Position numbers and translations under genes: made by a program. A model generated the notes under the pieces. That model searched no databases, was not told where the DNA came from, and worked only from the letters and a program-made list of their open reading frames with translations. This document shows positions 1,868-6,206 of a stretch of DNA of 6,206 bases, piece by piece. The stretch is from a virus (lineage: Duplodnaviria; Heunggongvirae; Uroviricota; Caudoviricetes), in the IMG/VR virus record IMGVR_UViG_2740892234_000011, one strand, 5' to 3'. How positions within the stretch are numbered: the first letter of the stretch is position 1; each line of letters starts with the position of its first letter.

Positions 1868-2023
1868 TTACTCCTCAGGTTCGTAAGCTGTGAAGACAGC
1901 GACCTCCGTCTGGCCGGTTCGGATTCGTACCTCGCAGAGGTCTTTCCTCGTTACCAGTGCCGTCACTATGACGGTTAAACAGATGACGATCAGGGCGATT
2001 AACATCGCCTTTTGCTGCTTCAT
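1868..2023 (-). CDS. hokD: Hok/Gef-family type I toxin, 51 aa, HokD/RelF-like
   Basis: ATG 2021-2023, TAA 1868-1870: MKQQKAMLIALIVICLTVIVTALVTRKDLCEVRIRTGQTEVAVFTAYEPEE. Single TM helix plus conserved C-terminal RKDLCEV..TGQTEVAVF..YE as in Gef/HokC and HokD. SD AAGGAG 9 nt upstream. Family is certain; the hokD-versus-hokC paralog call is from memory. Confidence 0.85.
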   Translation of the reverse strand: MKQQKAMLIALIVICLTVIVTALVTRKDLCEVRIRTGQTEVAVFTAYEPEE

Positions 2024-2080
2024 AGCCTGCTTCTCCTTGCCTTTCGGCACGTAAGAGGCTAACCTACGTTTGTGAAGCAT
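1868..2080 (-). CDS. mok-like reading frame, 70 aa, in-frame N-terminal extension of hok
   Basis: ATG at 2078-2080 gives MLHKRRLASYVPKGKEKQA followed by the complete Hok sequence, the same arrangement as mokC/hokC in E. coli K-12. Confidence 0.5.
   Translation of the reverse strand: MLHKRRLASYVPKGKEKQAMKQQKAMLIALIVICLTVIVTALVTRKDLCEVRIRTGQTEVAVFTAYEPEE
2037..2065 (+). promoter_or_regulatory. Putative sok antisense promoter
   Basis: -35 TTGCCT (2037-2042), 17-nt spacer, -10 TAACCT (2060-2065), antisense inside the mok N-terminal codons. Arrangement mirrors what I recall of the R1 sok promoter; not verified. Confidence 0.4.
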
Positions 2081-2150
2081 AGATTGGGCCTCAGATTAAT
2101 GTTAAGCGTCTTGCAGGACGCGTAATGTTAACTGGGGCTTTTCTCTGTCT
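2072..2150 (+). ncRNA. Putative Sok-like antisense RNA, complementary to the hok leader and mok start; ends approximate
   Basis: Starts just downstream of the putative -10, is complementary to the mok start/SD region, and contains a hairpin gcgtc-ttgcag-gacgc (2106-2121). The 3' end is not defined and the N-gap begins at 2154. Confidence 0.3.
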
Positions 2151-2153
2151 GCC
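2081..2153 (-). promoter_or_regulatory. hok mRNA 5' leader (mok-proximal part), truncated by the N-gap
   Basis: Minus-strand sequence GGCAGACAGAGAAAAGCCCCAG...GCAAGGAGAAGCAGGCTATG is collinear with what I recall of the R1 hok leader. Confidence 0.5.
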
Positions 2154-2163
2154 NNNNNNNNNN

Positions 2164-2284
2164 CAAAGCATGAAATTGGCCTCAGATTAATGTTAAGCGT
2201 CTTGCCGGACGCGTAATGTTAACTGGGGCTTTTCTCTATCTGCCTTTTGGTGTTCATGCCTGAGGCAGATAGCCTCAAGCACCC
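2164..2284 (-). promoter_or_regulatory. hok mRNA 5' leader, second copy, including the 5'-terminal hairpins; begins at a mok ATG (2169-2171) at the gap edge
   Basis: Minus strand reads GGGTGCTTGAGGCTATCTGCCTCAGGCATGAACACCAAAAGGCAGATAG...: a 5' hairpin GAGGC/GCCTC and a long-range stem ctatctgcc/ggcagatag, matching the 5' end of R1 hok mRNA as I recall it. Differs from block D at two positions in the 67 nt they share. Confidence 0.55.
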
Positions 2285-2290
2285 GCAGCA

Positions 2291-2319
2291 ATTCTAACTA
2301 TCCAATAGATCAATGCCAA
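2291..2319 (-). promoter_or_regulatory. Promoter of the hok mRNA
   Basis: On the minus strand: -35 TTGGCA (plus 2314-2319), exact 17-nt spacer, -10 TAGAAT (plus 2291-2296), about 7 nt upstream of the inferred hok mRNA 5' end near 2284. Confidence 0.6.
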
Positions 2320-2671
2320 CTTCTTTTCCTGCAACATCTCTCATCATAAGTGACCCAAATTCATCCAATCAGCACAAAAGAAACATTTAAAGCGTGAATG
2401 CTACCGAACGTTCATTTCAATTACATCGTTTTGATTTTTAACAGTTTTCACCTCAACAAATCAAATGGCATTAGCATTCATCATGGAAGAAAGACTGATA
2501 AAAATGATCATTTTCAATGACTTATGATCACACCGGGTATTGCCAAGTCATTCCTTTTACGCCAGGATACCCACAAGTGAGTAGTCGAGGAGAGTTTGCC
2601 AATTTTTGCGATATAAATTTCAATGTCCGAAGAACCATTAATTGTTAATTGATTCTGTATAAGGTATTAAC

Positions 2672-3769
2672 ATGACAATTTCATATATTCCTATTCTGAA
2701 AGCGAAACGTTCTGAGTTATCAGCTTTATCGCAGCTATCCATTGAAAAGAAATCAAAAATTTTGCCATTACTCGAAATTGAACCAGTGCCAATTGACCCT
2801 GATTCAGGTATTGCCTTAAAGAGTTATAACGAGACTCTTATAGAGTTCGGAAAGAAAGTCTCAAAATCTTGCTCAGATATGCAAGGTGTTTATATTGATG
2901 GATTATTAATTGAAGAGCATTTTATTTCTCCTGAAGATCATTACCCTATAATAAATGCGGTTAATCAAGTTAGAGATATGGGGATAAGAGTTATTCCTGT
3001 CAGTTCACCAACTCGCCCATCTAACTATAAAAGAGCGATTGATGAATTAATGCAGAATGAAATATGCTTGAGATTAACCACGTTAGATCTGGTTAACCCA
3101 CAATTAATAACGCATTACATTAATCATCTGGGAATTCCTTTATCAAATATTGATATAATTATTGACTTAAGAGATGAGTTAACCGAGGATAAAATTAATT
3201 CCGGCGAACTATATACTTTGGCAATGGGATTGATAAACAATCTGGCGCACCTCAATGAATACAGAAAAGTGATTCTTTCTGGGGGTTCATTTCCTACAGA
3301 TCTCAGTGATATTTCTGTTGGTCTATATTCTCAACCTCGAATCGAGTGGATTTTATGGCAGAGTTTAATGAATAGAAAAGAACTTGCCAGAAATGTGATT
3401 TATAGTGATTATGGAGTACAGCACCCCGACTTTAATAGGCTTTCGACGCGATTCCCTAGCGTATCTGCCAGCGTCAGATACTCTGGAGATAATGACTTTT
3501 GGGTATTTCGAGGAAGAGTAGCTAATCGCTTTGGTTATGAACAATATGGTAAACATAGTGAGGATATTCTTGCTCATCGAGAATATTCAGGGCCTACATT
3601 CTGTGCGGGAGATAGAGACATAGAATATTATGCAAACGAGTATCAAGCCTACAAAGCCAATCCCTCTGGTAACTATAAATTTGGTAGCCCAGAGGTATGG
3701 CGTAGGATTGGGCAAAACCATCACATAACTAAGGTTGTTGAGCAACTCGCCACTCTTTACGGGCTTTAA
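2672..3769 (+). CDS. Hypothetical protein, 365 aa, no family confidently assigned; candidate component of a two-gene defence module
   Basis: Single long ORF, ATG 2672 is the first start after an in-frame TAA at 2660-2662, stop TAA 3767-3769; AAGG 7 nt upstream. AT-rich codon usage unlike the flanking genes. Soluble-looking, only 3 Cys, no obvious Walker, HNH, HEPN or PD-(D/E)xK motif. N-terminus MTISYIPILKAKRSELSAL. Confidence 0.85.
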   Translation: MTISYIPILKAKRSELSALSQLSIEKKSKILPLLEIEPVPIDPDSGIALKSYNETLIEFGKKVSKSCSDMQGVYIDGLLIEEHFISPEDHYPIINAVNQVRDMGIRVIPVSSPTRPSNYKRAIDELMQNEICLRLTTLDLVNPQLITHYINHLGIPLSNIDIIIDLRDELTEDKINSGELYTLAMGLINNLAHLNEYRKVILSGGSFPTDLSDISVGLYSQPRIEWILWQSLMNRKELARNVIYSDYGVQHPDFNRLSTRFPSVSASVRYSGDNDFWVFRGRVANRFGYEQYGKHSEDILAHREYSGPTFCAGDRDIEYYANEYQAYKANPSGNYKFGSPEVWRRIGQNHHITKVVEQLATLYGL

Positions 3770-4307
3770 GTTTAACTCGAACAGCTTCACGAAGCTCGCC
3801 AACATCCATACTATTGGCGAGTTTTGACCATAAGACGCGTTTAGGTTTATTTTTCAAATTCTGTAGCTCCCCTACATCACTTAATAGGGAAAGCAATTCA
3901 TCTTTCCAAAGAAGCATTGTTAAGGAAAGTTTGTCCACTTGTGGATTCAACTTGCTAGTTCGAATTGTTTTTAAATGGATACCTTGCCGTGCACCTTGCG
4001 TAACTTGCTTTATCCCCCACCATGATGGAACTATGCTTAAAGCATCATAAAGATGGCAATCAGAGACAACCAAAGTTACTTTATCCATCACTGATGAGTA
4101 ATGTTGCACCTGCGCTGGTAATCTGAGCAAGTTATCACTCTTGCTCTTCAACTCATAACCATGTATAAGCCCATTGATCACTGCTATATCAGCTCTGCTA
4201 GCCCCTAGATTCATCGTAAACTCATCAATGATTAGGGTGTCAGGATCTTTATGATGATCTCTCAGAATCTTGGCATGCACAGCCTTTCTTACATCAATGT
4301 CTCTCAT
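3729..4307 (-). CDS. Hypothetical protein, 192 aa, with a PD-(D/E)xK nuclease-like signature; candidate effector of a two-gene defence module
   Basis: ATG 4305-4307 is the first start after an in-frame TGA; stop TAG 3729-3731. N-terminal region ...TLIIDEF TMNLGASRADIAVINGLIHGYELKSKSD gives E29, D40, E52-x-K54 in alternating hydrophobic strands, typical of the restriction-endonuclease fold. The C-terminal half looks helical. The 3' end overlaps the 365-aa CDS by 41 bp. Confidence 0.8.
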   Translation of the reverse strand: MRDIDVRKAVHAKILRDHHKDPDTLIIDEFTMNLGASRADIAVINGLIHGYELKSKSDNLLRLPAQVQHYSSVMDKVTLVVSDCHLYDALSIVPSWWGIKQVTQGARQGIHLKTIRTSKLNPQVDKLSLTMLLWKDELLSLLSDVGELQNLKNKPKRVLWSKLANSMDVGELREAVRVKLKARKEWRVAQQP

Positions 4308-4612
4308 ACCATAGTTGCGCTTTCATCGACTCTCTCAAGCCATGATTCTATATCATGGTTCGCATGAATGCCATTTGATATGACCAGTGGTTAAACATTG
4401 CACAGAAAAGTGGATGTGTATTTTAACAAAAGCAATGACGGCTAACCATGTTGGTATGTCGATAAAATGTTTCAACGTAAGCATTATCTGTTCCGCCCTT
4501 TCAGACGGTCTCCTGATGTTCTGAGGGTGCAGAATCCCTCCGGTTAAGGATTTAATAAAAATCGTTTCTGATTTAAATCTTCAGTATTTAGTTGTTAGTC
4601 GGTTTATAGCCT

Positions 4613-4924
4613 TTATGCTTCGGCCTTATTTCGCAACCAGACACAAACCGGGCCATCTTCCGTATCATGAATGGAACCAATAAACCAGCCATCGCCCTCT
4701 GGTCGTTCCGGTTCCCATGCAGAAATATCAGCATCACACGCATCAAGGTCAGCACATCCTTCATCTCTGAAGCAGAGGACGTATTGAAGATTATTTTCCT
4801 CCATCCAGGCGTTAAACTCTTCCGTTGAAATATATTCCCGACCGTCACAGAATTTTTCATATTCAGGATGCGTCCAGCAGCCATATTCATCACGTACTAC
4901 TGGTGTTTCTTTAATTTCATTCAT
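4613..4924 (-). CDS. Hypothetical acidic prophage protein, 103 aa
   Basis: MNEIKETPVVRDEYGCWTHPEYEKFCDGREYISTEEFNAWMEENNLQYVLCFRDEGCADLDACDADISAWEPERPEGDGWFIGSIHDTEDGPVCVWLRNKAEA. Its start overlaps the stop of the upstream gene (4917-4924), and GC content is typical of the prophage backbone. Confidence 0.7.
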   Translation of the reverse strand: MNEIKETPVVRDEYGCWTHPEYEKFCDGREYISTEEFNAWMEENNLQYVLCFRDEGCADLDACDADISAWEPERPEGDGWFIGSIHDTEDGPVCVWLRNKAEA

Positions 4925-5171
4925 TTCTGTTCTCCCACGTTTTCAGACTTTCACCACAGAACGGACAAAATGAAACCCGAACTGGTAATTTAGAAAATTC
5001 ACCGGAACGCAACATCACAAAATCAGGACCGCGAGTTAAACTCTCATTCCAGATTTTGTATATCAGCAGACCTTTTCGCATCGTGTATTCAGCATCATGC
5101 TCAAGGGACTTTGCCAGTGCTGCACATGGTTCTATCTTGTTGCCATTAACCTGGCATTTTGATTCACTCAC
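4917..5171 (-). CDS. Hypothetical small Cys-containing prophage protein, 84 aa, possible zinc-ribbon
   Basis: MSESKCQVNGNKIEPCAALAKS...VSFCPFCGESLKTWENRNE with Cys at 6, 16, 69 and 72 (CPFC). Its start overlaps the Ren-like stop by 4 nt. Confidence 0.65.
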   Translation of the reverse strand: MSESKCQVNGNKIEPCAALAKSLEHDAEYTMRKGLLIYKIWNESLTRGPDFVMLRSGEFSKLPVRVSFCPFCGESLKTWENRNE

Positions 5172-5590
5172 CGCACCACCTCCTCAAAATTCCCCTGATA
5201 AAACGCCAGTACGCGCTGCATAACTTCGCTCTTCCGGCACTCGAGACAGATTATGTTCAGACGCCTGTCGTAGCGGCGTATTTCGCCATCTGGTAATGAC
5301 CAGATAAGGTCCGGATCAACCGCAGATGGTTTCTTCAGCTTTGCCCTTGAGAGTTTTTTGCGGGCATTTTGCCAGTCTTTACGAGCCTGTTCAGACGGGA
5401 ATAACCCGTAGCCAGAATTGTATACATCGCCACTGGCAACCAGCTCTCTGGCCAGAACGCTCATCAGATATCTTGTTGCCCCAGTTTTAGTTTCCAGTTG
5501 TCGTAACGTCTCGCGCCCACTCTGGCGTACGAGTTCAACAACCTGCCCTTTAATTTTTTCCCGCTCTTCTTGTGTAAAAACTTTTGCCAC
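5168..5590 (-). CDS. Lambda Ren-like protein, 140 aa
   Basis: GTG start 5588-5590 with AGGAGG 4 nt upstream. The C-terminus CLECRKSEVMQRVLAFYQG resembles the lambda Ren C-terminus FKECRQSAAMKRVLAVYG as I recall it, and ETKTGATRY resembles Ren AALTGATV. Position downstream of replication genes matches lambda ren. Confidence 0.7.
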   Translation of the reverse strand: MAKVFTQEEREKIKGQVVELVRQSGRETLRQLETKTGATRYLMSVLARELVASGDVYNSGYGLFPSEQARKDWQNARKKLSRAKLKKPSAVDPDLIWSLPDGEIRRYDRRLNIICLECRKSEVMQRVLAFYQGNFEEVVR

Positions 5591-5737
5591 AAGCCCTCCT
5601 GAAAATTACCCCATGACCTGAAATCTGTTACCCTCTGAATCCCGGCGGAATTTCGGTGTCCGGTTCAGAAATATGATTAACACAACGCTGGTTGTTCGTG
5701 CCGCTTACCGGGAGCAACCAGGGGTTTNNNNNNNNNN

Positions 5738-5971
5738 CTCCTGCTCTCACGACAAATTATGTTCTGGTGCCTGTCGTAGCGGCGTATTTCGCCGTCTGGT
5801 AACGACCAGATAAGGTCCGGATCAACCACTGCAGGTTTCTTCAGCTTTGCCCTTGAGAGCTTTTTACGGGTATTTTGCCAGTCCTTACGCGCCTGTTCAG
5901 ACGGGAATAACCCGTAACCAGAGTTGTATACATCGCCACTGGCAACCAGCTCTCTGGCCAGAACGCTCATC
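5738..5971 (-). CDS. Partial CDS: internal fragment of a second, diverged Ren-like gene copy, bounded by N-gaps on both sides
   Basis: Translation MSVLARELVASGDVYNSGYGLFPSEQARKDWQNTRKKLSRAKLKKPAVVDPDLIWSLPDGEIRRYDRHQNIICRESR parallels residues 44-120 of the 5168..5590 product with several substitutions. Confidence 0.45.
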
Positions 5972-5981
5972 NNNNNNNNNN

Positions 5982-6206
5982 AGCCAGGTATCTTGTGTAA
6001 CGCCTCACACCATCCAGCATGGCCTCTGGTGGCACCCCCTCGCGTAATCTGGCCTTCCAGGCACTGAAAGCGGATTTCTTCGGGTTTGCCCCGGCTCGTA
6101 ACGGGTATTCCCGCCAGACCTGCTCGAACACATCCGGATAATCCACTCGTCCCACAGGCTGCCCGGTGTTTTCCGGGACTACCCGATCGGCTTCCCGCTG
6201 AATGGC
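5982..6206 (-). CDS. Partial CDS, truncated at both ends: prophage early-region protein, probably replication-associated
   Basis: Minus-strand frame open from the window end to the gap: AIQREADRVVPENTGQPVGRVDYPDVFEQVWREYPLRAGANPKKSAFSAWKARLREGVPPEAMLDGVRRYTRYLA. No family recognised with confidence. Confidence 0.45.

Follow-up and report, generated by a model that had tools for sequence, protein, structure and literature searches.

The phage satellite P4, for which the original paper is reportedly that of Ghisotti in 1990, carries the genes gop, beta and cII. Together these genes protect against the phages lambda and P1, and Gop acts as a toxin when beta is missing (PMC9122126); the trigger of the system is a phage accessory gene, orf184 (bioRxiv 2023.04.06.535777). 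A second described defence system with a beta-type component, PD-lambda-2, consists of a HigB-like protein (A), a protein with Xre-HTH and M78 peptidase domains (B) and a Beta_protein (C) (Vassallo 2022, PMC9519451). The C component is needed for defence, though not to neutralise the toxin (PMC9519451). The window considered here, by which we mean the whole 6,206-nucleotide stretch of IMG/VR virus record IMGVR_UViG_2740892234_000011 (Caudoviricetes), carries a beta-family gene and, tail to tail with it, a gene for a 192-amino-acid protein of the P4 cII type. This beta-cII pair is most likely a prophage-borne anti-phage module. Judging from sequence comparison, a structure model and analogy with the systems above, it is somewhat better than an even prospect that the cII-type protein, which has a predicted PD-(D/E)xK nuclease fold, serves as one half of a two-gene cassette, namely as its effector, a DNA endonuclease that depends on Mg2+ and is under the control of beta.

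Family and predicted fold of the cII-type protein

The open reading frame (ORF) of 192 codons named in the original prediction is borne out. It is read from the minus strand, and the corresponding plus-strand frame is full of stop codons. Its product is an already catalogued member of the large P4 cII / sce7726 family. A resemblance to sce7726-like proteins had been suggested, and correctly so: NCBIfam model NF033832, the sce7726 family, matches at 191.1 bits (E 1.7e-56; curated cutoff 70 bits), aligning residues 1–184 of the protein with positions 1–183 of the 184 in the model. RefSeq uses the same name for the identical protein (WP_001204666.1, 'sce7726 family protein'), which it shows adjoining a 'beta family protein', and in phage Rac-SA53 an identical protein is labelled 'CII phage-like protein'. 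The PADLOC model 'cll' (PDLC02989), which represents cII of P4 gop-beta-cII, matches at E 2.4e-28. In Pfam, the family PF26915 (Phage_P4_cII) is precomputed on all 120 of the homologues listed, one of them 99% identical to the query. An hmmscan of the protein against Pfam-A returned no family at E ≤ 0.1, the scanned library apparently lacking PF26915. The family is large: when 1.84 billion cluster representatives were searched with a profile, 5,426 clusters (50% identity) matched at E ≤ 1e-3, and with the threshold set to E ≤ 1e-30 there were 1,268. Both the family and its PD-(D/E)xK relationship are thus on record (in RefSeq, NCBIfam, Pfam and a published supplementary HHpred table), and the novelty of the finding itself is correspondingly low.

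The putative catalytic residues lie in residues 24–56, which read TLIIDEFTMNLGASRADIAVINGLIHGYELKSK. E29, D40, E52 and K54 are all present, with the D-to-E spacing of 12 that had been pointed out. Taken by itself this motif is uninformative: when the 192-amino-acid protein was shuffled 20,000 times, 64% of the products also contained the pattern [DE]-x5-20-D-x8-20-[DE]-x-K. Whatever weight it has must be drawn from conservation and fold. For conservation, a scan with one genome per species gave 391 loci, 80 of which were retained (L002–L081); these species-level loci, together with P4 cII, provided 75 distinct cII-type sequences for comparison. E29, D40, E52, K54, S55, D58, R62 and Q66 are invariant in all 75, including P4 cII. 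In an alignment of 50 sequences, with a lowest identity of 46%, the residues invariant beside the first four are R38, N45, G46, S55, D58, R62, Q66 and several more. Q66 forms, with Y70, a QxxxY motif in the helix that follows the ExK strand; added to E29, D40, E52 and K54, these two residues would make the putative metal-binding and catalytic set complete. Common as the bare motif is in shuffled sequences, chance was rejected as the origin of its conservation. The alignments support a predicted nuclease site under absolute constraint.

An AlphaFold2 model built on the alignment (pLDDT 93.6, pTM 0.88) contains the alpha-beta-beta-beta-alpha-beta core. Its elements run helix, helix, strand 25–32, strand 37–44, strand 48–54, helix 63–73, strand 76–82, helix, two strands and four helices. 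D40 falls within the second of the numbered strands, and E52 and K54 within the next, as had been expected. E29, however, had been assigned to a helix, and the model places it in the beta-strand 25–32 instead. The expectation that the remainder of the protein would be helical holds for residues 126–181; it fails for residues 63–116, which form part of the nuclease core (helix, strand, helix and two strands). Because the turns at 33–36 and 45–47 are short, the hairpin register of the DSSP strands would pair E29 with D40 and D40 with E52, which suggests that in the model the side chains of all three lie on one face of the sheet. The C-terminal helical domain is possibly DNA-binding.

Compared with solved structures by Foldseek, the model matched 3dnx with a probability of 1.00 (E 4e-5) and SfsA with one of 0.97; the top matches comprise 3dnx (SPO1766), Can2, NucS, SfsA and restriction enzymes. 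We take 3dnx to be a member of PF06319. Profile-profile comparison leads to the same fold. The published HHpred results for P4 cII list the MmcB-like family PF06319 (99.76%), AHJR-like proteins, NucS and DpnII-MboI (Rousset 2022, Table S3, PMC9122126), and MmcB is described as a PD-(D/E)xK endonuclease of mitomycin C resistance (PMC9578287). Searches of the PDB chain sequences, both with an alignment profile and with P4 cII as a single sequence, yielded chance matches only (TAF1, HisF), and 3dnx was absent from them; the link to solved nucleases is one of fold. The PD-(D/E)xK reading of the original prediction is therefore upheld by residue invariance and predicted fold, the bare motif being no more frequent than chance allows.

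Obligate pairing with beta and the antisense overlap

The partner protein matches Pfam Beta_protein (PF14350) at E 3.8e-52. Among PADLOC models it matches PD-Lambda-2_C at E 1.8e-41, and the P4 'beta' model (PDLC02985) only at E 2e-4. The match to sce7725_fam reaches only E 0.1 and covers residues 5–39.

A beta gene accompanies the cII-type gene in 77 of the 78 homologous loci for which the flank is available. Three of the 80 retained loci are without beta; two of these are cut by contig ends, and the third, from Xenorhabdus (L010), is a real exception. Counts out of 77 given here refer to the beta-encoding loci. The two genes are convergent in 77/77, across many phyla, and in 75/77 their coding regions overlap at the 3' ends, by a median of 53 nucleotides (range 11–158). 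All overlap lengths equal 2 modulo 3, that is, the overlap is always in one fixed antisense phase. Moreover, the distance from the codon of the invariant cII residue R183 to that of the invariant beta residue H351 is exactly 39 nucleotides in 67 of the loci, a set that includes Proteobacteria, Firmicutes, Actinobacteria, Acidobacteria, Chloroflexi, the Candidate Phyla Radiation (CPR) and others. With a fixed register and this spacing, one stretch of ~40 nucleotides encodes the conserved C-terminal motif of cII on one strand and that of beta on the other. The two proteins also diverge together (r = 0.85, Mantel p = 0.001), cII being the more conserved partner with a mean identity of 44% versus 31% for beta. 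These observations support the view that beta and cII form a conserved unit of two physically interlocked genes.

No third gene is common to all 77 loci. The commonest, in 15, encodes an Xre-HTH/M78 peptidase that matches PD-Lambda-2_B (E 5e-81) and lies just upstream of beta (L019, L039, L071 and L076–L081 among others). At least six of these 15 loci also carry a HigB-like PD-Lambda-2_A gene, and in four loci a DUF6932 protein is encoded further upstream. The association is also seen from the other side. At seven sampled places anchored on PD-lambda-2B-like peptidases (L090–L096), the peptidase and beta genes are followed in every case by a convergent Phage_P4_cII gene with a 50-nucleotide overlap, and in six of the seven a HigB gene precedes the peptidase. 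The pair is found in other company as well; in Gordonia phage Powerball it has an 89-nucleotide overlap and lies beside HicAB and an integrase.

The PD-lambda-2-type peptidase is itself unusually conserved, with 63–75% identity among a Gammaproteobacteria metagenome-assembled genome, CPR/Patescibacteria and Scalindua, and with more than 7,000 matches at E ≤ 1e-10. This conservation suggests recent and wide horizontal spread of the peptidase.

Table 1. Positions of the beta-cII pair, its parts and neighbouring features in the window
Feature	Position	Strand	Basis or remarks
Partner gene: beta-family protein, 365 amino acids, TIM barrel	2672..3769	+	Pfam Beta_protein
Antisense overlap of the 3' ends, 41 nucleotides	3729..3769	both	beta residues 353–365 on +, cII residues 180–192 on -
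P4 cII / sce7726-family gene, 192 amino acids	3729..4307	-	ORF list; NF033832; PADLOC cll; RefSeq WP_001204666.1; stop codon 3729–3731
PD-(D/E)xK nuclease-fold domain (predicted), N-terminal, residues ~1–120	3948..4307	-	
Three-strand catalytic core (predicted), residues 24–56 (E29, R38, D40, E52, K54, S55)	4140..4238	-	sequence verified; invariant in 75 distinct homologues
C-terminal helical domain, residues ~121–192	3732..3947	-	W134, E137, K181, R183 and W186 invariant or near-invariant
hokD-type type I toxin gene	1868..2080	-	Pfam HOK_GEF, E 3e-23; adjoins the beta gene
sok antisense RNA	2018..2284	-	Rfam RF01794, 108.8 bits; match spans N-run 2154–2163
DUF977 protein gene	5168..5590	-	Pfam E 1.2e-29; matches PHROG 142 'Ren-like exclusion protein', E 3.8e-47

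Prophage setting

The locus belongs to a Rac-like lambdoid prophage of Escherichia coli, in which the pair is situated between hokD/sok and small nin-region genes. The beta-cII cassette (2500–4300) has a GC content of 34–41%, versus 48–55% in the flanks. Among 5,426 complete E. coli genomes, 93 carry the identical DNA; a 2.2-kb query finds at least a partial match in 791, and the cassette occurs in only those 93. The low GC content and this patchy presence point to a horizontally acquired moron. Other variants of the bare pair in E. coli and enterobacteria are found in lambdoid prophages between the lysis genes and terminase. As for the neighbours listed in Table 1, the DUF977 protein is possibly a further exclusion function in the same prophage region.

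Upstream of beta and cII respectively, at 2457–2472 and 4367–4382, lie the two arms of a 16-nucleotide inverted match (94%), with a 13-nucleotide exact core, ATCAAATGGCATT. The copy at 4367–4382 overlaps a weak promoter-like site on the minus strand (4374–4345). As a general regulatory feature, ATCAAATGGCATT was rejected, since no comparable shared motif stood above shuffled controls in the other 77 loci; the match may be lineage-specific or due to chance.

The window as a whole is a scaffold in which six runs of 10 Ns, at 426, 870, 1447, 2154, 5728 and 5972, link short pieces. Pieces in 1–1446 are variant copies of one DUF968/hokD-flanking prophage segment, and the piece at 5738–5971 duplicates part of the DUF977 gene. 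The pieces at 1–1446 and 5728–6206 resemble collapsed variants of repeats that stem from several lambdoid prophages.

Function of the pair and comparison with known systems

Under the favoured reading, the cII-type protein would be the effector, a Mg2+-dependent DNA endonuclease, and beta, the faster-evolving partner, would either sense infection or restrain the nuclease. The obligatory antisense overlap would couple expression of the two genes and stop them from being parted. When another phage infects the cell, the nuclease would be released onto DNA, resulting in exclusion of the phage or in an aborted infection, and the two genes by themselves could provide this defence. Elsewhere, different toxin modules would be attached to the conserved beta-cII core. 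Considered together, the defence literature and the comparative data make a conserved core with added toxin modules the most economical arrangement, and the window, lacking gop as well as PD-lambda-2 A and B, holds the bare core of those validated defence systems.

Several observations weigh against this assignment of roles. The toxin of P4 is not cII but Gop, a small protein that has two transmembrane segments (PMC9122126). The published PD-lambda-2 clone ends no more than 396 nucleotides past beta and yet defends against lambda (PMC9519451); it therefore contains no complete convergent cII gene, and beta can act in defence without it. Conversely, cII-family genes occur without beta, in the Xenorhabdus locus already mentioned and in the phages Mx4 (p30, L088) and vB_BceM_WH1 (gp062, L089), so that the cII protein is not necessarily toxic alone. 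The two phage proteins are more distant (32–35% identity to the query), and their genes stand as solo members of co-directional arrays. In the window, the cII start lacks a clear Shine-Dalgarno sequence, and scans of 2100–4700 found promoter-like sites in the numbers expected from shuffled sequence; terminator counts likewise equalled the shuffled expectation. Finally, literature searches on sce7726, PF14350, PF26915 and gop-beta-cII led only to mentions in genome annotation and to three papers on defence systems, with no biochemistry among them.

Three other explanations can be set beside this one. The fold and the company of the gene could also be those of an MmcB-like phage nuclease for repair or recombination, serving replication or repair of the prophage's own DNA, and not defence, with beta as its cofactor. 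Both structure and HHpred place the MmcB-like family nearest to the protein, and MmcB acts in the repair of mitomycin C damage; the gene sits near RusA in the prophage's replication/nin region, the solo homologues of Mx4 and WH1 occupy early-gene arrays, and one actinophage homologue is labelled 'exonuclease'. However, the pair behaves as a patchy, low-GC accessory cassette that occupies several prophage slots as well as the P4 defence hotspot, it is absent from most lambdoid prophages with the same flanks (93 of 791 genomes have it), and it is linked to toxin-antitoxin-type modules, all of which makes such a repair or recombination role very improbable. A regulatory role, in which cII would mainly bind DNA, for instance to repress the beta operon or genes of the prophage, and would retain the nuclease fold as a scaffold, is also improbable, if less remote. 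PD-(D/E)xK derivatives without catalysis normally lose their catalytic residues, whereas here the four catalytic residues and the QxxxY motif are invariant over the 75 sequences of a family of 5,426 clusters. Nor is the 13-nucleotide motif common to the two upstream regions of the window conserved in other loci.

In an arrangement resembling restriction-modification, the convergent gene order would have the purpose that it has in many type II restriction-modification systems. Here the TIM barrel of beta, being transglycosylase- or glycosylase-like, would alter DNA or a nucleotide and so protect self, and cII would cut unaltered incoming DNA. This seems unlikely. Matches of beta to TGT and DpdA score no better than those to ~50 unrelated TIM barrels, no cofactor or precursor genes lie alongside the pair, and cII has no obvious sequence-recognition domain. 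Furthermore, beta also works with partners that are not nucleases (Gop, or HigB with the Xre-peptidase), and PD-lambda-2 needs it for defence, not for self-protection. The endonuclease effector controlled by beta is accordingly still the reading we prefer. A bolder form of it would make beta-cII an immune module of two genes that is ancient, very widespread and able to act by itself, composed of a TIM-barrel sensor or enzyme and a PD-(D/E)xK effector, with the overlap as a functional antisense switch and with gop-beta-cII and PD-lambda-2 as elaborations in which cII was overlooked as the common effector. We advance this form only tentatively, and it probably claims too much.

The value of the locus lies in a sharper question about the role of cII in gop-beta-cII, and about PD-lambda-2 as defined without it. 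The tail-to-tail overlap, universal and fixed in its register, the place of beta-cII as the core of two published defence systems, and the omission of cII from the definition of PD-lambda-2 are side observations of possible merit in their own right.

Among described systems, P4 gop-beta-cII provides the clearest parallel. P4 cII belongs to the same family and is labelled sce7726 family by RefSeq; it is 28% identical to the window protein over residues 22–127 (tblastn), with all catalytic residues conserved, and its beta-family partner is likewise convergent. Both pairs reside on mobile elements of E. coli. P4 cII is longer, at 264 amino acids versus 192, owing to an extended C-terminus. The P4 beta and cII genes are separated by a 27-nucleotide gap with an annotated terminator, an atypical arrangement, whereas those of the window overlap. 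In P4 the toxin gene gop lies upstream and directly abuts beta. The window has the cII and beta components but not gop: there is no plus-strand ORF of at least 50 amino acids in 2164–2671, where RefSeq annotates nothing.

With PD-lambda-2 the likeness is in beta, which resembles PD-lambda-2C more than it does P4 beta. Neither an A nor a B component was found in the window, and PD-lambda-2 as published is defined without cII. Natural operons of this type do have a cII-family gene behind them, convergent and overlapping, in the 15 of 77 and seven of seven cases described above. The sce7725/sce7726 pair, named for Sorangium cellulosum locus tags, is similar in composition, in that the cII-type protein passes sce7726_fam and its partner is of the beta/sce7725 type; the partner in the window falls instead in the Pfam Beta_protein branch, and neither NCBIfam model carries a function.

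Kinship to the MmcB-like proteins (DUF1052, PF06319) is at the level of fold and of the published profile-profile comparison for P4 cII, there being no Pfam hmmscan hit at E ≤ 0.1. MmcB-like proteins have no counterpart to the C-terminal helical domain, and pairing with a beta protein is not known for them. Unlike Can2/Card1 and Cap4, the window protein is without a sensor domain of the CARF or SAVED type; it has a TIM barrel for a partner, and neither a cyclase gene nor a signal-generating one accompanies it. What it has in common with these proteins, as with NucS and the type II restriction enzymes, is the predicted fold of the catalytic core and, if the favoured reading is correct, the logic of a nuclease effector held under the control of a sensor.

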